Notes: generated by a model from the letters alone, not told the origin. A stretch of DNA of 64,000 nt from Firmicutes bacterium UBA5766 (GCA_002418775.1 DIEU01000049.1:32241-96240), one strand, 5' to 3'. Positions 19,201-32,018 are shown, numbered from the stretch's first letter. Translations and numbers: made by a program.

Positions 19201-21030
19201 TTATTTTAAGGAATTTAAAGACGTACATATCCATTCTTCAATTTTTTCCGCCGCCTTGTTAAGATCTGTATAAAAAACGCAGGACTGTTCGATTATATTT
19301 CTTGACTTTTCAATTTGCTCAACAGTCTCCTGCTCTTCAACACGGGCAAATTTCTGGTAAGCAGGTGAAAAAATCGAATCAAGCCAGGGAAAAGCTTTTT
19401 GCTGTTCAAATATTTTTTGGTCCAAATGCTTTAGTTTTTCTTTGAACAGGTCTATCTTTTTAAGGGACGGCATTTCACCAGAGCTGTATAGCTGGTCCAA
19501 TTTCTGTGATATCTGCAGTCCTAAACGGGCATACTTTTTTACCCTTCTTAAGCATTGTTTTGTTTCTTTTAAATCAAAACATATTTTTTCGATCACATCA
19601 AGAGGAATATCTTTTTGTACAGCCAGTTTCTTTAATGTTTCGTCAATAGGATATTCTTTTGTCAGGTACCTGTCTATAGTTTCCCTGAAAGTCATTTCTT
19701 CAGTACCGGGAATTCTGGCTCCGCCTTCGGTAGCGTTGATTATTTTTACATGATCTTTGACCAGGGGGATCTCTTCTTCGTACCAGTGTAAAAAACAAGC
19801 CAGGGGAAGACTTGTTTCAACTTTTTTATTCCCTCCGTATCCCTCTACTTCAACCAGTTGTTCGCTGCCTGCGGTCCGCCCCTTGTAGATTGTCTTTTGT
19901 GAGTGTGTTTTGCGGCCGGTGTAGGCAAGGTCCTGACCGATAAAGATAATTGGATCAAGGCCTGCTTTTACGGCCAGGTCAAAGGAAACATTAGCCACAG
20001 AAGGGCCGCCCTTTAAAATGGTTCTTTTCTCATCAATGAAATTCTCCAGCCAGGACATAAAGTAAGGATCATATGCCCCTACAATTTTTGGCCCTTTAAA
20101 ATTGGCGGGGATGCTTTTATAGGTAACTGGAGAAAAGATCAATACAGAATCTTTAACTTCTGCATTTTCGAAATTTGCCGCGTTGGCTTCCGCTCCGTCA
20201 ACAGTGACGACCAGGTCCGGTTCCATTCCGATGCTTAATATTGCTTTAAAAGCGGTTCCGGCTGCAATAATAACCGCCTTGTTTTTAATTTCTTTGAGAA
20301 GGTGTATATTCTTATCCAGGGATGGACCCGCAGCAACAATTACCCCGGGTACGCCCTTAAATGGTCCGCAAAGAACGTCTACATCCGGGGCTTGAATTGT
20401 TGCCGGAAGATTATATAAAAAGTTTTCTGTCCAGTCGAACGAAAAATGCATCAAGGTATTCGAGCATAAGATATGATCAGCTACAACAGCGTTTACAGAA
20501 TCCTCGAGTTCCTTAAAACTATCACCCGCATTGCGCAGTACGGGCAAATACGCCAGGAGCTTAAGTTTTTCAGGCTGGTAGATGTTCAGTTGTCTTTCAA
20601 TCAGTTTGAGAATTTCTTTTTTTTCGGCGCCAAAGTATAAAGTAACGTTTTCCCTGTTAATCAGGGAAGTGAGGTCAACAGCATTTAAGGCGGTTTTAAA
20701 TGTTGACAGGTCAGGTTCCATGGCCACGATTTTTGCTTTTGGGTATAATAGACTCAATCTGTTAAGGTGGTAACCAAAGCCAATTCCACAGACAAGCAGC
20801 GTATCATCTTCCGCCGCGTAGATATTTTGAGCCCACCTGGCGGCCTCTCTCATCGGGTCGTAGGAGCTGTGCAAGTGGCAGACCTTTTTATTACGAGACA
20901 CTTTCAATGTGGGCAGTCCAGTCTTTGCCGGGACGACCTCGCCCAGAGGTGTCGTCTGTGGTAATCTGTCTGCCAGATCAGGATATCTGTTTTTTAGTGC
21001 GGAAAGATTTTTACTGGATAAGTTGCACAT
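19201..21030 (-). CDS. maf: motility accessory factor (Maf, DUF115/MptE-like) putative flagellin nonulosonic-acid glycosyltransferase
   Basis: 609 aa. The central segment 'VIVAAGPSLDKNIHLL...AVIIAAGTAFKAILSIGMEPDLVVTVDG' is typical of the Maf/DUF115 core. It sits between flagellar genes and the sugar genes. Confidence 0.8.
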   Translation of the reverse strand: MCNLSSKNLSALKNRYPDLADRLPQTTPLGEVVPAKTGLPTLKVSRNKKVCHLHSSYDPMREAARWAQNIYAAEDDTLLVCGIGFGYHLNRLSLLYPKAKIVAMEPDLSTFKTALNAVDLTSLINRENVTLYFGAEKKEILKLIERQLNIYQPEKLKLLAYLPVLRNAGDSFKELEDSVNAVVADHILCSNTLMHFSFDWTENFLYNLPATIQAPDVDVLCGPFKGVPGVIVAAGPSLDKNIHLLKEIKNKAVIIAAGTAFKAILSIGMEPDLVVTVDGAEANAANFENAEVKDSVLIFSPVTYKSIPANFKGPKIVGAYDPYFMSWLENFIDEKRTILKGGPSVANVSFDLAVKAGLDPIIFIGQDLAYTGRKTHSQKTIYKGRTAGSEQLVEVEGYGGNKKVETSLPLACFLHWYEEEIPLVKDHVKIINATEGGARIPGTEEMTFRETIDRYLTKEYPIDETLKKLAVQKDIPLDVIEKICFDLKETKQCLRRVKKYARLGLQISQKLDQLYSSGEMPSLKKIDLFKEKLKHLDQKIFEQQKAFPWLDSIFSPAYQKFARVEEQETVEQIEKSRNIIEQSCVFYTDLNKAAEKIEEWICTSLNSLK

Positions 21031-21060
21031 GGCGCTTCTCCTAAAGACCTGATTTTCAAG

Positions 21061-21414
21061 CTAAGCTAAAATGCATGTATTTACCTGTTCCACAAAAGGC
21101 ACAAGTTCGTATTCCAGCAAATCGCCAATCAAAACGTAATCGTCATTTTCCAATGCGTCAAGTAAACAGGTCAGATAATTGCCAAGTTCTTTTATCTCTT
21201 GACAGTCAAATGATTTTATGTTTCTTAAGAATCCCGCCAGCCAGCGCAACCCATCCGCGGCCTTGGTAAAAAAGAATGCCCCGTCTGCTTCATTGCCATT
21301 ACGCATCAATTCTGCGATAGCCATAAGACCCCCGGCTAACTTGGGCAAATAGTCTTCAGCGGTCTGATAGAGCTCATTGTCAGATAAATTGTTGTTTGTT
21401 TCTTCTGCAGCCAT
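21061..21414 (-). CDS. hypothetical protein (117 aa)
   Basis: Good SD for the downstream maf gene and tight operon spacing. I recognise no family motif. Confidence 0.45.
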   Translation of the reverse strand: MAAEETNNNLSDNELYQTAEDYLPKLAGGLMAIAELMRNGNEADGAFFFTKAADGLRWLAGFLRNIKSFDCQEIKELGNYLTCLLDALENDDYVLIGDLLEYELVPFVEQVNTCILA

Positions 21415-21426
21415 TTCTCCTGCCTC

Positions 21427-21840
21427 CTAAAAATCTTTTTGAATAAACCTTGGTGAAGGTACGATATTTCTCTTGTAGGCTTGAAAAGTATCCCTTGTTT
21501 TATTCAAGATCTTGTTTTCTTGCCTTTTTATTGAAATGCACTCGGTCATTAAATCCAGAAGTAAATCCATATTTATTTTGACTTCTTTTGTTTCGTGAAG
21601 AAGTTCTGAAAAAGCGCCTTTGACCATAGGAGATGTAAAGGGGGCAGAATGATTATTATACCTGCTTAAGTCTGTAATCCTTTCTCTTATTTCCGCTTCC
21701 GTCTTCCACAGCTGTGTTGCTTTTTCCAGGTTGCCCAGTTTTATTTCGTTCTCTGTTAATAGAATTAATTCCTTGAGGCTGGAATAGGCGTTTTTCTGTT
21801 TTTGTATAGCGGTCATTAATTCATCTGCCGTAAAGGTCAT
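21427..21840 (-). CDS. hypothetical helical protein in the position of FliT (137 aa)
   Basis: It lies immediately downstream of fliS (2-nt gap), as fliT does in Bacillus, and has helical, coiled-coil-like composition. The assignment is positional only. Confidence 0.45.
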   Translation of the reverse strand: MTFTADELMTAIQKQKNAYSSLKELILLTENEIKLGNLEKATQLWKTEAEIRERITDLSRYNNHSAPFTSPMVKGAFSELLHETKEVKINMDLLLDLMTECISIKRQENKILNKTRDTFQAYKRNIVPSPRFIQKDF

Positions 21841-21842
21841 CT

Positions 21843-22217
21843 TTACATCCCTATTTTACAGGCGCCCTTGGACCATGAGTCTTTTATTTCGGTAAGAAGT
21901 TCGGTTATCTCATCAAGGATTGTGACATCTCTCTTGATGTTTGCCTGGATAAGCCGAAAATGCATGTACTCATATAATCTTTCGAGATTAATGGCAAAAT
22001 CTCCGGCCTCAAAGTTCAAGCTTGCCCGCAGTTCATTGATTATCTTCTGGCTTCGGCTTAAAAGGTAATTTGTTTTGGCTATTTCACCCTGTTGGATCGT
22101 TTCCTTCGCCTGTTCAATGAAACTCAACGCTCCCTCATAGAGTATAAGGACGAGCTTTTCCGGCGGGGCTGTAATAACGTTATTCTGAGCGTATGCGGCT
22201 ACCTTTTCATCGATCAT
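21843..22217 (-). CDS. fliS: flagellar export chaperone FliS
   Basis: 'LILYEGALSFIEQAK...RSQKIINELRASLN...LERLYEYMHFRLIQANIKRD' matches the FliS family pattern. Confidence 0.9.
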   Translation of the reverse strand: MIDEKVAAYAQNNVITAPPEKLVLILYEGALSFIEQAKETIQQGEIAKTNYLLSRSQKIINELRASLNFEAGDFAINLERLYEYMHFRLIQANIKRDVTILDEITELLTEIKDSWSKGACKIGM

Positions 22218-22253
22218 TTGGTCGTCCCCCTTTGTCTGTTTCTTTAGTTTTTG

Positions 22254-23951
22254 TTAAGAACTGCTGTTCATCGCTGAAATTTGGTTTGTCAGCCATGTGC
22301 TGGTTGAATTGAACTGACTAATAAGTTCTTCCATCTGCGCGAACTGTCTCTCCAGTTGCTGCTGTCTGATTTCCAGCCGGTCGTTCATATCCTCAATTGA
22401 AGCGTTTAAAAACTTTATCTCTTTTTCGTAAGCTTTTTGGTGTGCAGATATAAGACCATTTCCATCATTAATCTGGCGGTCAATTTCTTCTATTAGGCGG
22501 ACTGAAATTCCATTTTCACTTTCTCCAAAAAGATTGGCCAGGGCTGTTGATTGGTCTTGGGCTGCTGAAGTTAATTTGCTCTCGTCTATAACTAATTTGC
22601 CGTCACGATCAATAGTAATTCCTGCCTGCGATAACCTGCTCAGGCTTGTTATTGTTCCTTCAACAGGAGCGATAGTCTTTCTCCAGATGGACTGAACCAG
22701 GGACTGCAAAGATATGTCTCCGTTTAATGTGCCTTCTTTATCCAGATCATCGTTGATTAAACTGACCACTTCATTGTACTGGTTGACGAAGTCACTGATC
22801 TTGCTTACAGTCGATTCATAATCAGGCTTAACTTCTATGCTTGCTTCTCCTGAAGTCAGCAGGGTAACGTTCAACCCGGGGATAATATCTGAAACTTCAT
22901 TCGAATCGCTGTAAAAAGTTGCCCCTCCGTTAATTTCCGATATTGAGAAAGCTGCGTTGGCCCCCAGATCCTGTTGAGCGTTTAATATGTCCAGGGTAGC
23001 CAGGAGATTCCCGCTTGTTTCTGATAAAGACATACCAATGCTGCCAGTTTTGCTTGATTTAAGAGCAATTTTGTCTGATACGGGATCATAGCTGGCATAA
23101 ACTTGAGCGTCAGAACTATTTATCCGGCTGATTATGTCGTTTAATGAATCAGCCGTAGTGTCGTAATCTATTGAAACACCATTGATTGTAAAACTGCCGC
23201 TGGTTGTGGAAAGAAGTCCGTTTTTCAAACGCGAATCATCCAAAATTGCATCTGTTTTGGTCATTCCCAGGTTCGCCTGGCTGGTTTTCGTATAAGGTCC
23301 GCTTCCCTGTGCAGGAGCGGCCAAAAGGCGTGTGGCGGTAAGAAAATTGCTTGTATCAGCGCCCTGGCCAAGGTTAAGGTTGTCAGGATTGTCGCTTGTT
23401 AAAACCAGGCGGTCGTTTAAGTAACTTGCTGTAACTCCGGTTGTTGACGACTGCGCATTGATCCGGTCGATTACATTTACCAGGCTGTCACTGGCTGCGT
23501 CCAGGGTAAAAGTATAATTGTTGATTGTAAATGTTCCGCTGGTGGGGGTAATGGCAAAACCGGCTTCGCTGCTGTTTAAAACGGCGCCGGTGTTAACCGG
23601 CTGGCCGATTGTCCCGGCGCTTTGCGTTTTGGTTCCGGTGGCTGTGCTGGTTATGTTAAAATGATATGTTTCCGGCAGGGCGCCGCTCTGTGCTGAAGCT
23701 TTAAGCACTGACTCATTGCTGACCGTGGTGGTTTTACCCGAAAAGGAAGTGGACAGGTTCAAATCTGACAGTGCGTTTTTCAGGGAAAGGAGTTTGGTGT
23801 TAATTGTGCCCCAGGCATTTTTTTTGGCGGTTAAATTTGTAACCTTTGTTTTCATATTGGTCACAGGTTGTTTTTCAAGCTGCATTAATGCCTCAATTAT
23901 GCTGTCTGTGTCAATGCCGGAGCTAATTCCCGTAAATTGAATGGTTGACAT
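22254..23951 (-). CDS. fliD: flagellar filament capping protein FliD
   Basis: N-terminus 'FTGISSGIDTDSIIEALMQLEKQP' and a C-terminal coiled coil '...LERQFAQMEELISQFNSTSTWL'. Confidence 0.9.
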   Translation of the reverse strand: MSTIQFTGISSGIDTDSIIEALMQLEKQPVTNMKTKVTNLTAKKNAWGTINTKLLSLKNALSDLNLSTSFSGKTTTVSNESVLKASAQSGALPETYHFNITSTATGTKTQSAGTIGQPVNTGAVLNSSEAGFAITPTSGTFTINNYTFTLDAASDSLVNVIDRINAQSSTTGVTASYLNDRLVLTSDNPDNLNLGQGADTSNFLTATRLLAAPAQGSGPYTKTSQANLGMTKTDAILDDSRLKNGLLSTTSGSFTINGVSIDYDTTADSLNDIISRINSSDAQVYASYDPVSDKIALKSSKTGSIGMSLSETSGNLLATLDILNAQQDLGANAAFSISEINGGATFYSDSNEVSDIIPGLNVTLLTSGEASIEVKPDYESTVSKISDFVNQYNEVVSLINDDLDKEGTLNGDISLQSLVQSIWRKTIAPVEGTITSLSRLSQAGITIDRDGKLVIDESKLTSAAQDQSTALANLFGESENGISVRLIEEIDRQINDGNGLISAHQKAYEKEIKFLNASIEDMNDRLEIRQQQLERQFAQMEELISQFNSTSTWLTNQISAMNSSS

Positions 23952-23968
23952 GGTTCCAACTCCCTTTT

Positions 23969-24337
23969 TTACACATAATCATCCATGAATGTCCCTACAG
24001 CATTTTTTATTTGGGCCAGTATATCCAGAAATTTTTCCTCAGGAATTTCTTTAATTACTTCTTCCGGATACCGGGTTGAATCAACGACTTGTACTATAAG
24101 CCGCTTCGTAGCTTTGTGGACCTTAAACCGCAGATCATAACCCACAAAAATTGCCAGCCTGTTTAAAGTCTCGGTGTCGGCTTTTAATACTTTGATATTT
24201 TCTTCCGCTGCCCCGGTTTTTCCCGCATTTGAATCGTCTTCATTTTGGGCCTGCTGTCTTTTTTGAACCGGTTTAAAGTCCTGCTGCAGGGTAGACTCTA
24301 TTATCGCCTGGATTGCGCTTTTTTCTTCGATTTTCAT
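23969..24337 (-). CDS. flaG: flagellar protein FlaG
   Basis: 'LRFKVHKATKRLIVQVVDSTRYPEEVIKEIPEEKFLDI' is the FlaG family core. The gene lies between the flagellin and fliD. Confidence 0.8.
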   Translation of the reverse strand: MKIEEKSAIQAIIESTLQQDFKPVQKRQQAQNEDDSNAGKTGAAEENIKVLKADTETLNRLAIFVGYDLRFKVHKATKRLIVQVVDSTRYPEEVIKEIPEEKFLDILAQIKNAVGTFMDDYV

Positions 24338-24397
24338 AGATCATCATCCTCTTCAAATTCCAAAGGGCCTTCTTAACAGGCATTTTGTTTCCCCTAA

Positions 24398-24439
24398 CAG
24401 GAGGGACGGCCGGATGCTGTAATACCCCGGCCGGTCCTG
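24398..24439 (-). terminator. GC-rich stem-loop after flagellin copy 1 (no clear U-tract; leaky terminator or RNA stabiliser)
   Basis: Plus-strand arms 'caggagggacggccgg' (24398-24413) and 'ccggccggtcctg' (24427-24439) pair with one bulge. Confidence 0.4.
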
Positions 24440-24456
24440 ATAAAGGGTTCCAAAAA

Positions 24457-25284
24457 TTATCTCATTAAAGAGAGTATCTGCGAGGGTATTTGGTTCGCCT
24501 GAGCTAACATAGCCATGCCGGTTTGCTGCAGGATCTGGTTTCTTGAGTACTCGGTCATTTCTTTGGCCATATCCAGATCGCGGATTCTCGACTCGGCTAC
24601 GGTGAGGTTTTGATTCATATTTCCCAGGTTGGTAATCGTATGCTCAAGGCGGTTTTGATAAGCGCCGAGCTGTGCCCTGCGGGTGGCAAGTTTCTCAATG
24701 GCATTCTGCACTTTCGTGATCGCGGCGTTTGCCCCGGTCACAGTAGTCAGTGACAGTGTTCCTCCTGTTACTATAGCTGAAAAAGCTGCTCTGTTAATGG
24801 CGATGGTCATCTTTTCGGCTGCCAGGGCGCCGACCTGGAAGACCTTGGTGTTGGCGGCGCCTGAGAAGCCGCCGCTTAACAGTTTGATGCTGTTAAAGTT
24901 GACATTGTCCGCCATCTGGTTGATCTGTGCTTTTAAAGCGCTGTATTCAGCATTAATCTTTGCCCGGTCGGTATTGTTCAGACTGTTGGTTGCAGCTTCG
25001 GTGGACAGGTCTTCCAGGCGGACGAGGATACCGTTTATGGTATCCAGCGCACCTTCAGCGGTCTGGATCAGCGAGATTGCGTCCTGGGCGTTCAATTCGG
25101 CTCTTTCCATCCCCTTGAGCTGAGCCCTCATTTTTTCCGAGATGGCCAGTCCGGCGGCATCATCGGCTGCACGGTTGATCCGCAATCCGGAAGACAGCTT
25201 TTCAAGGTTCTTGGTAATGCCAGCCTGGGTAATGCTAAGGTTTTTATTGGCATCCAGCGCCATGGTATTATTGTAAATGTACAC
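24457..25284 (-). CDS. fliC: flagellin (275 aa, short D0/D1-only type), copy 1
   Basis: N-terminus 'LSSGLRINRAADDAAGLAISEKMRAQ' and C-terminus 'QILQQTGMAMLAQANQIPSQILSLMR'. GTG start after AGGAGG. Confidence 0.95.
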   Translation of the reverse strand: MYIYNNTMALDANKNLSITQAGITKNLEKLSSGLRINRAADDAAGLAISEKMRAQLKGMERAELNAQDAISLIQTAEGALDTINGILVRLEDLSTEAATNSLNNTDRAKINAEYSALKAQINQMADNVNFNSIKLLSGGFSGAANTKVFQVGALAAEKMTIAINRAAFSAIVTGGTLSLTTVTGANAAITKVQNAIEKLATRRAQLGAYQNRLEHTITNLGNMNQNLTVAESRIRDLDMAKEMTEYSRNQILQQTGMAMLAQANQIPSQILSLMR

Positions 25285-25319
25285 TTCTTTTTTCCCTCCT
25301 TTTCTGAGTTTTGCGTTTC

Positions 25320-25349
25320 GTGCCTTTTTACGGCCGCTCAGAAAGGCAC
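25320..25349 (-). promoter_or_regulatory. conserved 5'-UTR hairpin of flagellin copy 1
   Basis: 8-bp stem GUGCCUUU / AAAGGCAC. The same stem occurs at 26581-26610. Confidence 0.4.
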
Positions 25350-25370
25350 AAAAACTTTTATTTGTGTATA

Positions 25371-25397
25371 GATTCGGTAAAAAAGTTGATTAACTTA
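25371..25397 (-). promoter_or_regulatory. candidate sigma-28 (SigD/FliA) promoter of flagellin copy 1
   Basis: The minus strand reads TAAGTTAA-N11-ACCGAATC, against the consensus TAAAGTTT-N11-GCCGATAA. It is identical to the site at 26632-26658. Confidence 0.45.
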
Positions 25398-25433
25398 AGG
25401 GTTTTGCAGGTCTGACTTACAAAATATAAATTA

Positions 25434-25478
25434 ATTTTCAAAAAAAAGACCTTCAGGGTTTTTACCTTGAAGGGTCTT
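25434..25478 (-). terminator. rho-independent terminator (duplicated copy of the flgL terminator)
   Basis: The minus strand reads AAGACCCUUCAAGG-UAAAAA-CCCUGAAGGUCUU followed by U8. Confidence 0.7.
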
Positions 25479-25486
25479 TGGAAAGT

Positions 25487-25716
25487 TAAGCTTATCTGCA
25501 AAACTTTTGCAGTACAGGACATGGAAGTTAAAGAATTCCCCATCTCAGTATGGGCAGTTTCCATTTGAGAAGTAAGATAGTTGAGACAAGTATTAAGTTA
25601 ACTTCAGTCTTTAGCTGTATTCTGACGGACTGAGGTTTCCTGGAGGCTGTTGCTCAATTCCTGCCAGGAGTTCCTAAAACTCTGTTAAGAGCTAGCTGAC
25701 TCCAGTGCCGGTCGTA
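25487..25716 (-). pseudogene. chimeric scar: a flgK internal fragment (aa ~107-171) fused to the last ~11 codons of flgL
   Basis: 25523-25716 aligns with flgK 28521-28712, with scattered mismatches. 25487-25520 aligns with flgL 26789-26822. The track ORF 25358..25564 ('METAHTEMGNSLTS...SCTAKVLQISL') is this remnant. Confidence 0.75.
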
Positions 25717-25729
25717 AGGATTCCAAAAC

Positions 25730-26548
25730 TTATCTCATTAAAGAGAGTATCTGCGAGGGTATTTGGTTTGCCTGAGCTAACATAGCCATACCGGTTTGCT
25801 GCAGGATCTGGTTTCTTGAGTACTCGGTCATTTCTTTGGCCATATCCAGATCGCGGATTCTCGACTCGGCTACGGTGAGGTTCTGGGTCATATTTCCCAG
25901 GTTGGTAACCGTATGCTCAAGGCGGTTTTGATAAGCGCCGAGCTGTGCCCTGCGGGTGGCAAGTGTTTCAATGGCATTCTGTACTTTCGTGATCGCGGCA
26001 TTTGCTCCGGACACAGTACTCAGCTTTAGTGTTCCGCTCGCTACTATTGCACTAAATTTTGCGGCGCCGATGGCGATGGTCATTTTTTCGGCTGCCAGGG
26101 CTCCAATCTGGAAGGCTTTGCCGGCTGAGAAACCGCCGCTTAACAGTTTGATACTGTTAAAGTTAACATTACTCGCCATCTGATTGATCTGTGCTTTTAA
26201 AGCGCTATATTCGGCAGATATCTTTAGCCGGTCGGTATTGTTCAAACTGTTGGTTGCAGCTTCGGTGGCCAGGTCTTCCAGGCGGACGAGGATACCGTTT
26301 ATGGTGTCCAGCGCACCCTCAGCGGTCTGGATCAGCGAGATTGCATCCTGTGCGTTCAACTCGGCTCTTTCCATACCCTTGAGCTGAGCCCTCATTTTTT
26401 CCGAGATGGCCAGTCCGGCGGCGTCATCGGCCGCACGGTTGATCCGCAATCCGGAAGACAGCTTTTCAAGGTTCTTGGTAATGCCAGCCTGGGTAATGCT
26501 AAGGTTTTTATTGGCATCCAGCGCCATAGTGTTATTGTAAATGTACAC
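25730..26548 (-). CDS. fliC: flagellin (272 aa), copy 2
   Basis: The N- and C-terminal ~90 aa are nearly identical to copy 1, and differences cluster in aa ~95-200. GTG start after AGGAGG. Confidence 0.95.
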   Translation of the reverse strand: MYIYNNTMALDANKNLSITQAGITKNLEKLSSGLRINRAADDAAGLAISEKMRAQLKGMERAELNAQDAISLIQTAEGALDTINGILVRLEDLATEAATNSLNNTDRLKISAEYSALKAQINQMASNVNFNSIKLLSGGFSAGKAFQIGALAAEKMTIAIGAAKFSAIVASGTLKLSTVSGANAAITKVQNAIETLATRRAQLGAYQNRLEHTVTNLGNMTQNLTVAESRIRDLDMAKEMTEYSRNQILQQTGMAMLAQANQIPSQILSLMR

Positions 26549-26580
26549 TTCTTTACCTCCTTTTCTGAGTTTTGAGTTTC

Positions 26581-26610
26581 GTGCCTTTTCACGGCCGCTC
26601 AGAAAGGCAC
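26581..26610 (-). promoter_or_regulatory. conserved 5'-UTR hairpin of flagellin copy 2
   Basis: Stem GUGCCUUU / AAAGGCAC with a 14-nt loop. Confidence 0.4.
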
Positions 26611-26631
26611 AAAAACTTTTATTTGTGTATA

Positions 26632-26658
26632 GATTCGGTAAAAAAGTTGATTAACTTA
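26632..26658 (-). promoter_or_regulatory. candidate sigma-28 promoter of flagellin copy 2
   Basis: The minus strand reads TAAGTTAA-N11-ACCGAATC. Confidence 0.45.
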
Positions 26659-26699
26659 AGGGTTTTGCAGGTCCGACTTACAAAATATAAATTAATTTT

Positions 26700-26742
26700 T
26701 TATATAATAAAAGACCTTCAGGGTTTCTGCCTTGAAGGTCTT
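26700..26742 (-). terminator. rho-independent terminator of flgL
   Basis: The minus strand reads AAGACCUUCAAGG-CAGAAA-CCCUGAAGGUCUU followed by UUUAUUAU. Confidence 0.7.
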
Positions 26743-26768
26743 GGGATGGTTTTTTAGATCTGTTTTTG

Positions 26769-27677
26769 TTAACTTATAAAATATAATAAGCTTGTCTGCA
26801 AAACTTTTGCAGTGCAGGAAAGGGTGGCTTGATAGGTGAGCATGCGTGAAGCCAGTTCGGTTGTTGCCGCTTCTATATCAGTATTCTGGAGACCGGCCAA
26901 AGATTTTTGCAGGTTTGTATTTTGATCTTCTAAAAACGTTCTGATCATCTCCAGGTGATTGGTTTTAACGCCTGCTTTAGAGCGTGCCTGGATAAAGAGG
27001 TTTTGATCATTGGTCAGGTTTTCTATTTGTGCGTTTACAGCCGAGGAGTCTCTTGCGTTCAAGGCATCCTTAAGGGCAAAAAGATGCGAAAAAACATTGC
27101 TGTTAATGAAAAGCTCCTTACCGTTGAAACCGACGGTTTCGCTAATCTGGTACATGACTTCCCTTGTCGACTCATTGAATATTTTTTCTGTGATGGAAGG
27201 GTTGACGACCACTTCTTCCCCCCCTTCCGCAACATCTTGCCTAATAAAGGGACGTTCTCCCTTGCTGTTGCTAAAAATATACCTGTCTGCAATTGAAGTG
27301 TTGGCAGTATTAATCAATTGGTCAATCAAGTTATCGACCTTTATGGCATAGTTGTCGAAATCCGAAGAATTACTGCCTGTGCTGCTGGCTGAAAGTGCGG
27401 TATCGAGCGCGTTTTGCATTACTTGGCTGGCGCTGTAAAAAGCGCTGTCAGCTTCATTTAGCCATAAAATCCCGTCTTCTATATTGCTGCTGTATTGATC
27501 CTGGCAGGCCAGATTTTGTTTTATGGAAATTACTTTCCAGAGACTGGAAGGATCGTCGCTGATTTGCTGCATTTTTTGCCCAGAAGAAATCTTATGCTGT
27601 AAACCGGCTATTTCCCGGATGTTTTGCTGTAAATTGCAGATTGTGTTTAAAGCGTTTATATTATTTGAAACACGCAT
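26769..27677 (-). CDS. flgL: flagellar hook-associated protein 3 FlgL
   Basis: 302 aa with a flagellin-like N-terminus 'MRVSNNINALNTI...ISSGQKMQQISDDP'. It follows flgK. Confidence 0.85.
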   Translation of the reverse strand: MRVSNNINALNTICNLQQNIREIAGLQHKISSGQKMQQISDDPSSLWKVISIKQNLACQDQYSSNIEDGILWLNEADSAFYSASQVMQNALDTALSASSTGSNSSDFDNYAIKVDNLIDQLINTANTSIADRYIFSNSKGERPFIRQDVAEGGEEVVVNPSITEKIFNESTREVMYQISETVGFNGKELFINSNVFSHLFALKDALNARDSSAVNAQIENLTNDQNLFIQARSKAGVKTNHLEMIRTFLEDQNTNLQKSLAGLQNTDIEAATTELASRMLTYQATLSCTAKVLQTSLLYFIS

Positions 27678-27698
27678 TTTTAAAAATACCCCTTCCCG

Positions 27699-29033
27699 CT
27701 AAGTCCGGTTAATCAGCGTATCCAGCATGTCATTAAAAATACTCATGGCCTTTGCCAACGCCTGGTAAGCAAACTGGTACTGCATCAACATGGTGAGCTC
27801 CTCGTCTATGGATACACCGGAGAGAGACTGGCGCTGGGCTTCAAATTGTAAGCCGATGGAATTAAAAGTTTCAGCATTATTACTGGCCTGACTTTGGTCT
27901 GAGCCAATCTTTGAAATCAGTTGGCTGTAATAACCCGTCAGGCTCTTATTGCCTAACTCCACATAATCGACTGTATTATTTATATAGGCTATGGCCATTG
28001 CGTTTCTGCCGTCGCTGGGGGAGGAACTTTCCTGGGCAGTTGCAATATTATTCGGGTCATTTAAAATATCCTCATTGACCGAGATTGTTTTGTTTCCAGC
28101 GGCATCATCCTCTAAAGTAAAAAAAGCCACTCCAGTCACATTGTCTAGGGTATATCCGTCTTCATGAATTTCGTTTACCTTGTCAGCCAGTGTCTGAATA
28201 AATAAATTCATTTTGTCCTGATAGTCTTCAAAAGATTGTTTGGTTGCCAGAAGGCCGCCCAATTCCCCTTTTCCCGATGACAGATCACCCTCGGAAAGGG
28301 GAGTAACATCCTGCCCTTCAACAATTGTTTTTCCACAGATAACTACAGTCGCCGTGTTATTGTCGTTAATAGTAATTGCAATGTCTGAAAGCCTGGACAT
28401 TTCATTGAGCAGGGAATCCCTTCGGTCCATTAAGGAGTTGTTTTCCCCGGTTACACATTTTTTTAAAGCCAGGTTGACGTCAGCCAATTGGTCCGCAAGC
28501 TGGTTTATCTCTGAGACCTTGGAAGTTAAAGAACTTTCTATTTCAGTGTGGGCAGTTTCCATTTGAGAAGTAAGATAGTTGAGATAAGTAGTTAAGTTAG
28601 CTGCTATCTGGGTTACGTTCTGACGGGTCGAGGCTTCCTGGGGGCTGTTGCTCAATTCTTGCCAGGAGTTCCAGAATTCTGTCAAAAGTGAGCTGACCCC
28701 GTCGCCGGACGTATCTGTGAAAAGACATGCTGCTTTGGCCAATTCAGTTTCCTGTTCTTCCCAGTATCCAATTTCGGAAAGATTGGCTCTAAGCTGGGGA
28801 TCGAGAAAATCATCCCGCATTCGCTGAATATTCTTTATCTCCACACCTGCATTTAGTTGTCCGTGATGCAGGGAAGGCGGCAAAGACGTTCCCGTGGCTG
28901 AAAGAACAGCCCGCTGGCGAGAATAACCTTCAGTATTTGCGTTTGCAATATTATTTTGGGTCGTTTCCAAAGACTGCTGGTAAGATAACAAGCTGCGACG
29001 GATTATTTCCAGACCCGAAAAAGTCCCGGACAT
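27699..29033 (-). CDS. flgK: flagellar hook-associated protein 1 FlgK
   Basis: I set the start at ATG 29033 ('MSGTFSGLEIIRRSLLSYQQSLETTQNNIANANTEGYSRQ') after AGGAGAG. The C-terminus 'LSGVSIDEELTMLMQYQFAYQALAKA' is typical. Confidence 0.9.
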   Translation of the reverse strand: MSGTFSGLEIIRRSLLSYQQSLETTQNNIANANTEGYSRQRAVLSATGTSLPPSLHHGQLNAGVEIKNIQRMRDDFLDPQLRANLSEIGYWEEQETELAKAACLFTDTSGDGVSSLLTEFWNSWQELSNSPQEASTRQNVTQIAANLTTYLNYLTSQMETAHTEIESSLTSKVSEINQLADQLADVNLALKKCVTGENNSLMDRRDSLLNEMSRLSDIAITINDNNTATVVICGKTIVEGQDVTPLSEGDLSSGKGELGGLLATKQSFEDYQDKMNLFIQTLADKVNEIHEDGYTLDNVTGVAFFTLEDDAAGNKTISVNEDILNDPNNIATAQESSSPSDGRNAMAIAYINNTVDYVELGNKSLTGYYSQLISKIGSDQSQASNNAETFNSIGLQFEAQRQSLSGVSIDEELTMLMQYQFAYQALAKAMSIFNDMLDTLINRT

Positions 29034-29062
29034 AGGACACTCTCCTAATAGTGTATTAAGTC

Positions 29063-29509
29063 CTAAAAAACCCTGTCGATCATTTGATTGACCTGAAGAG
29101 TTTCTTTTACTTTGCCTTTGGTATTGTACACTTTTTGCTGTTCCGGCGCGCACAGTACGGATAGGATTTGGTGGTGGAAATTAATACCGTTTTGGCTGAG
29201 TATAGCGTTCGTTTGACATTTTTCCTTTAACTGCTGCGCCAGGTTGACGATATTATTTTTTAACTGGGTTAATTCCGCTTTTTCTTCGTAAGGATTTTCT
29301 TTATTCTGGCTTAAATACTCAATTTTTTTTTGGTTTAATAAATTTAATTTGTCATTAATTTCTGATATATAATCATTAGCCTTACTCAGTTCCCCTAAAT
29401 TTTCTTCCTGAAGCGCATGCTGTTGTGTTTCAACTGCGTCAACAAGCTTCTTGGCCAGGGTCAGTTCAAGGTCTAAAATTTCCTCGAGAGTAAGCTGTTT
29501 ATTTGCCAT
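29063..29509 (-). CDS. flgN: FlgN-like flagellar export chaperone
   Basis: Helical 148-aa protein between flgM and flgK. The N-terminus 'LEEILDLELTLAKKLVDAVETQQHAL' is FlgN-like. Confidence 0.65.
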   Translation of the reverse strand: MANKQLTLEEILDLELTLAKKLVDAVETQQHALQEENLGELSKANDYISEINDKLNLLNQKKIEYLSQNKENPYEEKAELTQLKNNIVNLAQQLKEKCQTNAILSQNGINFHHQILSVLCAPEQQKVYNTKGKVKETLQVNQMIDRVF

Positions 29510-29522
29510 ATCGGTTCTTTCC

Positions 29523-29834
29523 TTAACGCTTTGTATCTTTCATGGAACCTATTTCCTCAGACAGTCCGTTAATGATTTCTTCCTCATCTACCTCAAAAGA
29601 TTCTTCTTCAATTCTTTGCTGAATACTTTCAATTAAATCCTGACGGACATCTGAAAGGTTATTTAATTTTTGATGGAAAAATTGTATTTCCCTTGCTTCC
29701 GGTGAGATTTCGAGCAAGTTGTTCCCCTCTTCAGTACCGGCGTCTTTTTTAACCCGAAGATTTTTATCCTGTTTTATCTCGCTGCGGTATATTTCTAAAA
29801 GTTTTTGAGCGTTGCCGCTTTCATTTATTTTCAT
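29523..29834 (-). CDS. flgM: anti-sigma-28 factor FlgM
   Basis: The C-terminal 'VRQDLIESIQQRIEEESFEVDEEEIINGL' is the FlgM sigma-28-binding region. ATG 29834 follows GGGGTGA. Confidence 0.8.
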   Translation of the reverse strand: MKINESGNAQKLLEIYRSEIKQDKNLRVKKDAGTEEGNNLLEISPEAREIQFFHQKLNNLSDVRQDLIESIQQRIEEESFEVDEEEIINGLSEEIGSMKDTKR

Positions 29835-29872
29835 TACAATCACCCCGATGGATTTTTTCTCCCTTTTTTATC

Positions 29873-29899
29873 TACTCGGCACAAATAAAATATACTTTA
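29873..29899 (-). promoter_or_regulatory. sigma-28 promoter P1 of flgM (proximal)
   Basis: The minus strand reads TAAAGTAT-N11-GCCGAGTA, a near-consensus match to TAAAGTTT-N11-GCCGATAA. Confidence 0.75.
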
Positions 29900-29931
29900 G
29901 GCCTTAATGAATATTTTTTCTCCTTTTTATC

Positions 29932-29959
29932 TATTCGGCACAAATAAAATATCCCTTTA
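29932..29959 (-). promoter_or_regulatory. sigma-28 promoter P2 of flgM (distal duplicate)
   Basis: The minus strand reads TAAAGGGA-N12-GCCGAATA. Confidence 0.6.
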
Positions 29960-29976
29960 GGCCTTTAAAAATATTT

Positions 29977-30756
29977 TTATTCTTCTTTGTTTTTTGTTTC
30001 CCTTTTTCTGTTTGTGGGTTTTAAGAATCCCGATAGCCGATCCCTGATCAGTGTGGGGTTATAACCGGCTTGAAGAGAGATAATTCCTTCCATCATCAGT
30101 TGCCTGATGAGGATTTCCTTTTTACTGAGGTTGCCCAGTTTTGTGGCGATTGGAAGCCAGATAACATTAGCGCTTCCCACTCCGTAAAGAGTAGCAATAA
30201 ATGCTACTGCAATAGCAGGGCCCAGTTTATCAGGCGTACTCATTTGGCCCAGTACATGAACCAGGCCCATCACTGTTCCGATAATTCCCATAGTAGGCGC
30301 ATAACCGCCGGCTGCTTCGAAAATATGTTTGCCGGTCTGATGGCGCTCTTCGGTGGCATAAATTTCTACCTCAAGCGTATTCTTGACAAGTTCAGGATCG
30401 TTGCCGTCTACAAGGAGTTGCAAGCCTTTTCGAAGGAAAGGATCACTTACTTCGGAAAGCCTGTTTTCCAACTGCAATAGACCTTCCCTTCGGGAAATTT
30501 CGGCCAGTTCAACAATTTTTTCGATAACTTCTCCTGGTTCGGGTACTTTTTGAGTCAGGACGATTTTAAACAAACCAGGAATCGTTTTTATTTCTTTCAT
30601 AGAGAAACTTGCGATAGTGGCTCCTATTGTGCCTCCGAAAACAATCATGGCGGCTGTCTTTTGCATGAGCGCGGATGCATGGCCCCCTTCCAACAGGAAA
30701 CCGCCGACTAAAAAAATAATTGCTCCGAATATGCCAATAAGAATACTAGGATCCAA
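29977..30756 (-). CDS. motA: flagellar stator protein MotA (MotA/TolQ/ExbB channel family)
   Basis: 259 aa with 4 TM segments. 'AAGGYAPTMGIIGTVMGLVHVL' and 'AFIATLYGVGSANVIWLPIA' are MotA core motifs. Confidence 0.9.
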   Translation of the reverse strand: MDPSILIGIFGAIIFLVGGFLLEGGHASALMQKTAAMIVFGGTIGATIASFSMKEIKTIPGLFKIVLTQKVPEPGEVIEKIVELAEISRREGLLQLENRLSEVSDPFLRKGLQLLVDGNDPELVKNTLEVEIYATEERHQTGKHIFEAAGGYAPTMGIIGTVMGLVHVLGQMSTPDKLGPAIAVAFIATLYGVGSANVIWLPIATKLGNLSKKEILIRQLMMEGIISLQAGYNPTLIRDRLSGFLKPTNRKRETKNKEE

Positions 30757-30770
30757 GATTAAATTCCCCT

Positions 30771-31529
30771 TTATTTATTAGTTGATGATCCAGGTTCCGC
30801 TACCTGGTATTCATTACGCAAAATTACTATATCAACCCGCCGGTTCATTTGGCGGTGCGCTTCCGTATCGTTGGGAACCATAGGCCTGTATTCGCCATAA
30901 GCCGAGGCGGAAAGCCTCTCAGGCGGAAAAGAGTGTTTGTTGATTAATTCTTTAACGACTGTAGTGGCACGGGCGGAAGACAGTTCCCAGTTGGACGGGT
31001 AGATTGGGCTATGAATGGGTAAGTTGCAGGTGTGTCCTTCTACCCTGACATAGTTGGGAACTTTACGCAGCATAGGAGCTATTTGCCCGATTATTTTACT
31101 TGCCTGTTGGGTCAGCTCGGAAGAACCGATTACAAATAGAACTTCCTCCTGGAAACTTATTACAACCCCTCTGTCCTCGCTGGTCACTGAAACCTTTGTT
31201 TGAAGGCTGCTCTTATCAATATAACTGGTCAGTTGCTCCTTGATATCCGATAATTTTATCGAATCAAGCTGATTTATATCGGTCATAGGTGATTTTGAAC
31301 CTGACTTTCCGATTGCCGCTGAAGGTCCGCCATTCATTAAAACCATCCCGCCTCCTCCCATAGCCTGGCTTAATGACTGCGACAAATATTTAAATTTCTC
31401 AAGGTCCAATTGGCCCAGGGAGTACATAACTATAAAGAAAATCAGTAGCAGGGTAATCAAATCAGCATAGGTGACCAGCCAGCGTTCAGAACCTCCATGG
31501 CTTTCCTGATTTCTTTTGGTTCTTAACAT
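30771..31529 (-). CDS. motB: flagellar stator protein MotB (OmpA-like C-terminal domain)
   Basis: 'ERWLVTYADLITLLLIFFIVM' is the TM segment with the conserved Asp. The C-terminus 'NWELSSARATTVVKEL...NRRVDIVI' is OmpA-like. Confidence 0.9.
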   Translation of the reverse strand: MLRTKRNQESHGGSERWLVTYADLITLLLIFFIVMYSLGQLDLEKFKYLSQSLSQAMGGGGMVLMNGGPSAAIGKSGSKSPMTDINQLDSIKLSDIKEQLTSYIDKSSLQTKVSVTSEDRGVVISFQEEVLFVIGSSELTQQASKIIGQIAPMLRKVPNYVRVEGHTCNLPIHSPIYPSNWELSSARATTVVKELINKHSFPPERLSASAYGEYRPMVPNDTEAHRQMNRRVDIVILRNEYQVAEPGSSTNK

Positions 31530-31881
31530 AAATCACGCCGCTTTCAAAAGAAAAATATCTTACTTTTTGAATCGGCTTTTTTCATTCAATGCTGTAGGAC
31601 CTTGCAGAAAAGGTTTAAATAAAGGAGAGCAATTTCTTGAATAATCCCAGAGCATAAATTTGTATTATATGACTTGACAGTATTATCAGATAATAAGAAA
31701 ATATTGTATAAATAAATTATGCGCTCCTTTGGCATATTTTCAAAAATTATGCATTGTTATTAGCCGCCAGGAAGCTTTTTCGACACGTATCAACAGACAA
31801 TAATGTTAAATATTGGTAATAGGTCAGGGCAGGACAAAAAAATAATTTAAATTCGACAATATGTTACAAAATACTACAAAT

Positions 31882-31919
31882 TTCGATAGAGGAAAATACT
31901 TCTTTGTGGCGAATAAAAA
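31882..31919 (+). promoter_or_regulatory. sigma-H-like promoter motif (TTCGATAGAGGAAAAT-N12-CGAATAAAAA) about 375 nt upstream of flgB
   Basis: 24 of 26 fixed positions, and the spacing, are identical to 11897-11934. It fits RNAGGAWWW-N11-RNNGAATWW. Confidence 0.3.
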
Positions 31920-32018
31920 ATATGTAAAAATATAAGATAATATGTTTTATCTGTAATAACAGCCATGGTAAATTAGGAAATATCTAATAAAAATAGAAGT
32001 ATTTCTCACTCCATAAGT

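Follow-up and report, generated by a model that had tools for sequence, protein, structure and literature searches.

The DNA analysed here, which we call the window, is a stretch of 64,000 nucleotides (nt) from Firmicutes bacterium UBA5766 (GCA_002418775.1, DIEU01000049.1:32241-96240), and we are concerned with a tandem pair of flagellin genes in its late flagellar cluster and with the spacer between them. The late flagellar genes around this spacer are all on the minus strand, and their identities were assigned by Pfam. The upstream flagellin gene, fliC-A (25730-26548), encodes 272 amino acids (aa), with matches to Flagellin_N (E = 1.3e-35) and Flagellin_C (E = 2.6e-28), and the downstream gene, fliC-B (24457-25284), encodes 275 aa, with E values of 1.2e-36 and 1.8e-28 for the same two domains. 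Both reading frames are intact and carry the two domains that define the family, at E values from 1e-28 to 1e-36. Upstream of the pair are flgL (26769-27677, 302 codons) and flgK (27699-29033), the latter taken as 444 aa from the ATG that is used in all relatives; the list of open reading frames (ORFs) extends it to a GTG at 29153. The spacer itself (25285-25729) is 445 bases long and has a minus-strand gene on either side. We consider it likely that it consists of two parts, a non-functional scar of a rearrangement and a functional, duplicated control region.

Nearly all of the spacer can be traced to sequences elsewhere in the cluster. In a blastn comparison of 25285-25729 with the whole window, positions 25287-25482 matched 26548-26746 at 92.0% over 200 columns (E = 6.6e-79), a segment that includes a terminator, a candidate promoter and a 5' untranslated region (UTR). 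Positions 25522-25716 matched 28520-28713, within flgK, at 81.1% over 196 columns (E = 2.5e-46), and 25487-25519 matched 26787-26819, near the 3' end of flgL, at 93.9% over 33 nt (E = 7e-9). All other matches had E values of 0.28 or more. The local alignment scores of the three matches were 96, 28 and 155, compared with means of 7.5-9.6 for shuffled sequences (standard deviation about 1, maximum 14), and thus lay 10-100 standard deviations above the shuffles. From the E values and the shuffled controls together, we therefore conclude that the repeats are real. The preliminary description of this locus had recognized the copy of the flgL terminator, the candidate promoter and the 5'-UTR hairpin, as well as an internal flgK piece of about 190 nt, and both of these are borne out, the flgK piece measuring 195 nt. 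It had also described the last ~34 nt of flgL in the spacer; this piece is indeed derived from flgL, but it is not the very end of the gene, as the last codons and the stop are absent. The template for this side of the spacer is the resident 3' end of flgL with its terminator, promoter and 5'-UTR (26549-26819, minus strand). Taken at full length, the repeated flagellin unit aligns 26746-25716 with 25482-24443 at 90.7% over 1044 columns, and the flagellin unit, the flgK piece and the flgL piece keep the order and orientation of their parents, as copies of a direct repeat do.

The scar is made up of two gene remnants. The larger, which we term flgK' (25522-25716, minus strand), is an internal fragment of 195 nt corresponding to codons ~107-171 of the 444 of flgK, and its resident counterpart is the minus-strand segment 28520-28713, of which position 28713 bounds the original duplicated unit on the left. 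flgK' has two 1-nt insertions and one 1-nt deletion, contains stops in every frame, and carries 15 substitutions that are unique to it, with changes at all codon positions; it is about 79-87% identical to the flgK genes of the relatives. This pattern of substitutions and small insertions and deletions shows what, judged from the sequence, appears to be neutral decay. The smaller remnant, flgL' (25480-25521, minus strand), retains ~34-40 nt, namely codons ~287-297 and a 6-nt AACTTT remnant which, after a 4-nt gap, extends to codon ~300 of 302. It lacks the last two codons, the stop and ~22 nt beyond (the counterpart of 26747-26786), which amounts to a third, small deletion. Homology to functional genes, a broken frame and a cut-down extent mark both remnants as pseudogenes. 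When folded as RNA, flgK' was no more stable than shuffled sequence (z = +0.67). Within it, on the minus strand at 25539-25554, three relic-specific A/T-to-G substitutions make a 5-bp hairpin, CCCAU...AUGGG, followed by GAAUUCUUUA. This element was flagged by our terminator scan; its U-tract is weak, its fold was not above shuffles (z = -0.95), and it is probably a product of chance.

A minus-strand ORF of 68 codons (25358-25564) covers part of the scar. In it, Met158-Ser171 of flgK' are joined in frame to Ser287-Leu297 of flgL', after which the frame reads through the terminator and the promoter. There was no Pfam match, and we detected no family or coding signature in it beyond the parental fragments. 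The ORF is a fused relic with read-through and not a gene, as the preliminary description had held, and its annotation should be corrected in this sense.

The remainder of the spacer has the parts expected of a control region. The copy of the intrinsic terminator of flgL (25440-25479, minus strand) forms an extended hairpin followed by U8 (-15.3 kcal/mol, z = -2.97), and the resident terminator (26700-26742) folds at -16.3 kcal/mol (z = -5.29). Each has the G+C-rich hairpin and the succeeding U-tract of an intrinsic terminator, and the extension of the hairpin is common to both copies and absent from the relatives. A simple consensus scan for sigma-70 promoters and terminators missed both of these real hairpins, probably because of an internal mismatch in the stem, and found nothing over the shuffle expectation, the count of terminator-like elements being below it. 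An Rfam scan of 23900-27000 (E ≤ 1), which includes the relic and the 5'-UTR, gave zero matches. The candidate sigma-28-type promoter of fliC-B (25372-25398, minus strand) reads TTAAG-N16-CCGAATCT, and an identical copy stands before fliC-A at 26633-26659. The position of the element is conserved in all four relatives, and it resembles CTAAAG-N16-GCCGAATAG upstream of flgM. Its presumed -10 part (25372-25379 and 26633-26640) is CCGAATCT in both copies, compared with CCGATTCT in 4/4 relatives, a shared derived state which, as far as the sequence can tell, is consistent with homogenization of the copies or with a change older than the duplication. The 5'-UTR of fliC-B (25285-25371, minus strand) has a hairpin at 25320-25349 that is conserved in the relatives and a Shine-Dalgarno sequence at ~25294-25302; it is ~97-98% identical to 26549-26632 and folds at -20.8 kcal/mol (z = -3.1). 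It seems probable that both flagellins are transcribed from equivalent late-class candidate promoters and that the terminator copy at 25440-25479 now ends the transcripts of fliC-A, which would cross ~250-290 nt of the scar to reach it.

The state of the locus before the rearrangement can be read from its relatives. Those used here form four lineages (L001; L002, which is the same as L010; L012; and L013-L016), with 81-86% protein identity in FlgK and 75-77% in FlgL, and the nearest named ones are Desulfotomaculum-like metagenome-assembled genomes. All four have the order flgK-flgL-one fliC-flaG-fliD-fliS. None of these single-flagellin relatives carries the spacer or any trace of the scar, and their fliC-flaG spacer is free of flgK-like DNA. 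When the window is aligned with each of them, three blocks appear. The first (32000-25716) runs from motAB through fliC and 14 nt beyond, the second (25716-25522) falls within their flgK, and the third (25524-20001) takes in the 3' end of flgL, the intergenic sequence, fliC, flaG, fliD and beyond. Three colinear blocks with restarts at 25716 and ~25524 are the pattern left by the junction of a tandem duplication that has later lost internal sequence.

At base level the spacer has three junctions. J1 (~25716/25717) is found where GAGATAA GTTTTGGAATCCTT is joined to ACGACCGGCACTGG, that is, where the sequence following fliC meets flgK at codon ~107 with 0-3 nt of microhomology. Its left side matches the conserved post-fliC sequence (TAAATTTTGGAACCCTTTATCAGGACCGGCCGG in L001) and its right side corresponds to flgK (consensus of the relatives, TACGACCGGCACTGGGG). 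At this novel join the distal end of the unit meets its proximal start, and the alignments with the relatives restart in flgK there. The native sequence retained after fliC-A is limited to 14-16 nt (25714-25729, minus strand) and stops at J1: TAAGTTTTGGAATCCTT after fliC-A matches TAATTTTTGGAACCCTT after fliC-B and to TAAATTTTGGAACCCTT in L001/L002. The preliminary description had considered ~30 nt past both stops to be alike. This holds for the first 14-16 nt (25714/25716-25729 and 24441/24443-24456, the blastn segments ending at 25716 and 24443), but the rest is derived from flgK in copy A, and the resemblance beyond this point is limited to a short motif, GACCGGC, that is either a coincidence or a micro-homology. 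A post-fliC hairpin, GGACCGGCCGG...CCGGCCGTCC (24395-24440), is present in L001/L002 and survives only 3' of fliC-B, where 24380-24456 (77 nt, with the hairpin) folds at -31.6 kcal/mol. Because J1 cuts the 5' arm of this hairpin, fliC-A has lost its native 3' structure. At J2 (25521/25522), TTTAACTTCCA is followed by TGTCCTGTACTGC, so that codon 171 of flgK passes into codon ~286/287 of flgL; the microhomology here is 0-2 nt, 1.7 kb corresponding to 28519-26820 is deleted, and the frames of flgK and flgL happen to be in phase. J3 (~25482-25487) is a deletion of ~31-36 nt between two CTTT motifs, accompanied by a 4-nt deletion; the final codons of flgL, its stop codon and the spacer before the terminator are lost.

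A history can be proposed from what is observed directly: the blocks are colinear with the relatives, the junctions are visible, the relic is a pseudogene, and the relatives lack the scar. The ancestor would have had a single-copy flgK-flgL-fliC-flaG arrangement, the order still found in all sampled relatives. An illegitimate join at 0-3 nt of microhomology, from 14-16 nt past the fliC stop to codon ~107 of flgK, would have created a direct repeat of ~3.0 kb (28713 to 25717) with the content flgK'-flgL-terminator-promoter-fliC. A 1.7-kb deletion (the equivalent of 28519-26820) may then have removed most of the redundant, truncated flgK'-flgL', and a further deletion of ~31-36 nt at the CTTT microhomology, with the 4-nt deletion, may have taken the stop region of flgL'. 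The remains would be the 195 nt of flgK' and ~40 nt of flgL', followed by the terminator, candidate promoter and 5'-UTR, all intact, in front of fliC-B. The preliminary description had proposed a tandem duplication and then a deletion. The structure fits this outline, but J1, J2 and J3, as seen against the relatives, show that the number of junctions required is three or more, and not two.

A number of points weigh against this account. The untrimmed duplication, or any other relative with two flagellins, was absent from the collections searched (genome contigs, metagenome contigs and proteins), and the order and number of the steps are thus inferred. The search of genome contigs found only two close loci, both single-copy, that of metagenome contigs for intermediates gave only one contig, already among those analysed, and the protein searches with FlgK and FliC-A found five close lineages only. 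The differences between A and B, clustered in the centre of the genes, could partly reflect unequal constraint. The sigma-28 element is a partial match to a TAAA-N15-GCCGATAA-type consensus, with 6 occurrences in the window compared with 3.4 expected, which is not a significant enrichment, and the promoter remains a candidate. The lack of an untrimmed intermediate, together with the nil or very short microhomology at the junctions (0-3 nt at J1, 0-2 nt at J2 and CTTT at J3), would also suit serial template switching in one step, of the fork stalling and template switching or microhomology-mediated break-induced replication (FoSTeS/MMBIR) type. In that case replication would have passed from fliC and its 14-16 nt to codon ~107 of flgK (195 nt), then to the 3' end of flgL (~40 nt) and from the terminator onward, and a full-length flgK'-flgL' intermediate would never have existed. 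The end sequence is the same under both models, so the window does not discriminate between them. However, duplication followed by deletion of a redundant repeat is the commoner route in bacteria, and among relatives near enough to have kept an intermediate sampling is sparse, with only one of 2.2 kb; we therefore hold template switching to be rather improbable. The near relative in question (L019, ENA ERZ27315029, 2229 nt) is the closest other lineage seen, 95.2% identical to the flgN-flgK-flgL region. It is uninformative on the duplication because the contig is too short and because it is identical to the resident flgK across the relic region.

Another concern is that all data are short-read metagenome assemblies. 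The organism is known only from such assemblies of hydrocarbon-degrading cultures, in which the same DNA occurs, and one contig (L007) ends within the repeat, so that two strain variants of a single flagellin locus might have been stitched together in tandem. Against this, a frameshifted flgK piece with 18% divergence is fused to a flgL piece, which an allelic join at a shared repeat cannot make. The same arrangement, with identical junctions, is found at 99.98-100% identity in three independent assemblies from different samples and pipelines (JGI 3300000032, ENA ERZ922797 and JGI 3300000568, the last of which spans all three junctions). fliC-B stands in the same context on seven contigs of 50-200 kb, and there is a 9% difference between the copies, each of which has flanks of its own. 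An artefact of assembly is hardly credible in view of these results. It is almost as improbable that the spacer has a function of its own, as a 68-aa protein, a regulatory RNA or a 3'-UTR element. The ORF at 25358-25564 is open and starts with ATG, J2 has joined the two frames in phase, and the relic has acquired the hairpin at 25539-25554 with its weak U-tract. However, the ORF crosses a terminator hairpin and a promoter, neither Pfam nor Rfam gave a match, the number of terminator-like elements is under the shuffle expectation, and the relic bears the insertions, deletions and substitutions at all codon positions of neutral decay. The relic RNA does not fold better than shuffles by either z score given above, and the idea of a functional 3'-UTR element or small RNA in the relic was dropped on this ground.

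The parentage of the relic is a further difficulty. A neighbour-joining analysis of 193 alignable sites placed flgK' with the flgK of L001 in 898 of 1000 bootstraps (90%) and with the resident flgK in 5 of 1000 (0.5%). Sites shared exclusively numbered 5 for the relic and L001, 3 for the resident gene and L001, and 1 for the relic and the resident gene. In a plain duplication within the lineage the resident flgK would be the nearest relative of the relic, which was not the case on these 193 sites at a mosaic locus. The phylogenetic affinities of the window, L001 and L002 form a mosaic across the flagellar late cluster (20000-32000): L001 is the sister of the window at the flgN/flgK 5' end, in parts of fliD and at 20400-20700, and elsewhere L001 and L002 are sisters. 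The sequences thus suggest frequent homologous exchange among the three lineages, and because the locus is mosaic the grouping of the relic with L001 may reflect a later exchange of alleles. A later replacement of the resident flgK allele, a unit from another strain, and a duplication before the split that has collapsed in the relatives are all possible sources of the discordance. The relic is most simply explained by duplication of the resident copy, although this is not the only account. The discordance lowers our confidence in a plain duplication of the present resident allele and leaves the structural reading unaffected.

One of these possibilities, that a unit was imported from a related strain by homology-facilitated illegitimate recombination and flgK'-flgL' were deleted afterwards, would give the same architecture: homology would have anchored the incoming DNA in the flagellar cluster at one end, and an illegitimate join at the other end would have made J1. 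In a variant, the duplication preceded the split of L001 and L002 and was collapsed there by unequal crossing-over. Besides the placement of the relic and the mosaic nature of the cluster, it agrees with this idea that flgL' shares AACTTT, ATA and CTTTCCAAAG with L001 and not with the end of the resident flgL, and that the centre of fliC-B is nearer to L001/L002 (synonymous divergence, dS, 0.30-0.35) than to that of fliC-A (0.42), fliC-A being the outlier. However, the informative-site patterns of unit A (10:4:16) and unit B (11:5:16) are alike, so that neither looks foreign, and affinity does not change abruptly at the unit's left boundary. The two halves of the relic (7:3 and 8:3) give no signal of a crossover, which counts against the collapse in L001 as well. 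The derived terminator and promoter states that A and B share and the relatives lack mean that import also needs gene conversion, and the placement itself rests on 193 sites, with a sign test of L001 against the resident flgK of 15:6 (P = 0.08). This account in either form is therefore unlikely in our opinion, though less so than template switching, and we prefer duplication within the lineage followed by deletion.

The duplication does not seem to be recent. Of the sites compared, 17.6% differ between flgK' and the resident flgK, and at many of these the relic holds the state seen in the relatives, the resident gene being the changed one. The two flagellin units are 96-98% identical in the promoter, the UTR, the first ~400 nt and the last ~200 nt of the genes, compared with 85-90% between these ends and L001/L002. 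In the central ~300 nt the identity is 79-87%, with 33 A-specific and 13 B-specific sites. Correspondingly, dS between A and B rises from 0.18 in the N-terminal region to 0.42 in the centre and falls to 0.10 in the C-terminal region; the values against the L001/L002 orthologues, for the N-terminal and central regions, are 0.30-0.48. The divergence of the relic, a central dS near the orthologue values and the tract pattern between A and B together suggest an old duplication, with an age close to that of the split from the nearest relatives sampled. A and B also share derived states that all relatives lack (the extended terminator stem, a 3-nt deletion, and CCGAATCT for CCGATTCT). In a Sawyer-type runs test the longest concordant tracts were 32 and 28 polymorphic sites (P = 0.008 and 0.0002). 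The paralogues are therefore closer to each other than to the orthologues over discrete tracts, silent and non-coding sites included, which is the pattern expected of gene conversion. This suggests that conversion has kept the promoter, the 5'-UTR and the terminal coding parts alike and that the exposed centre of fliC-A has diverged. A promoter region with ~2% divergence between copies, compared with 10-13% between species, is hard to explain without homogenization. We would go further only tentatively: it is possible, although we give it less than even weight, that the pair is as old as or older than the split of the sister lineages and has been held together by lasting conversion, with the relatives possibly collapsed to one copy, or else that one unit was captured from another strain. 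A closer source of the divergent fliC-A centre was not found among 5.8 billion proteins. The central part of fliC-B is similar to the one flagellin of L001/L002 except for an in-frame insertion of 9 nt (24855-24870; GAANTK in place of AGK) that is found neither in fliC-A nor in 4/4 relatives.

Tandem flagellin paralogues that evolve in concert are known from flaA and flaB of Campylobacter. The pair described here is similar to such systems, and to the fla pairs of Alteromonadales, in that the genes are adjacent and co-oriented, that the ends are far more alike than the surface-exposed centres, and that the ends of the paralogues are closer to each other than to their orthologues. It differs from them in having a datable, non-coding flgK'/flgL' relic between the copies and the same candidate promoter on both. 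For the tandem fla pairs of Alteromonadales, long-lasting gene conversion and repeated independent tandem duplication could not be separated (PMC6053082). On this question the relic bears for the present lineage. The neutrally decaying flgK' serves as an internal clock and suggests that the similarity of the flagellin ends is kept up by gene conversion and is not the result of a recent copy. If the old-pair or captured-unit reading is true, the locus would be a rare case among flagellins in which an old duplication with lasting conversion can be separated from a recent duplication.

The scar also explains how an uncultivated Desulfotomaculum-like bacterium of hydrocarbon-degrading cultures came to have a second flagellin gene with its own candidate promoter. 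Tandem duplication of a segment through illegitimate or microhomology recombination, with later trimming by deletion, is a standard part of bacterial genome dynamics. The spacer shows no essential difference from this scheme: there is a direct repeat with a novel end-to-start join, the microhomologies are 0-4 nt, and the redundant truncated genes were lost and the gene with its own candidate promoter was retained. The rearrangement is thus of a textbook type and involves no new mechanism. It is unusually legible, because for each junction the sequence before the duplication can be read from the four single-copy relatives, and it retains relics of both neighbouring genes.

In the wider cluster, the order assigned by Pfam within the window is flgM-flgN-flgK-flgL-fliC-A-fliC-B-flaG-fliD-fliS. 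On the minus strand, flgM (29523-29843) and flgN (29063-29509) precede flgK, and flaG (23969-24337), fliD (22254-23951) and fliS (21843-22217) follow fliC-B. The late block of Bacillus subtilis is flgM-flgN-flgK-flgL-fliW-csrA-hag-...-fliD-fliS. The window agrees with the Bacillota late block in the order flgM-flgN-flgK-flgL-flagellin-flaG-fliD-fliS, in a terminator after flgL, and in a flagellin gene that has its own candidate sigma-28/sigma-D-like promoter and a structured 5'-UTR. Unlike B. subtilis, it has two flagellins, not one, and no fliW-csrA between flgL (26769) and the flagellin (26548), a feature common to the window and the relatives of this clade. Another lineage-specific tandem duplication lies in the gap between motA and flgM (29852-29978, minus strand). 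It consists of 2.1 copies, 88% identical, of a 59-62-nt unit that is single-copy in 4/4 relatives and holds the element upstream of flgM, CTAAAG-N16-GCCGA(A/G)TAG, together with an AAAGGAG Shine-Dalgarno sequence.

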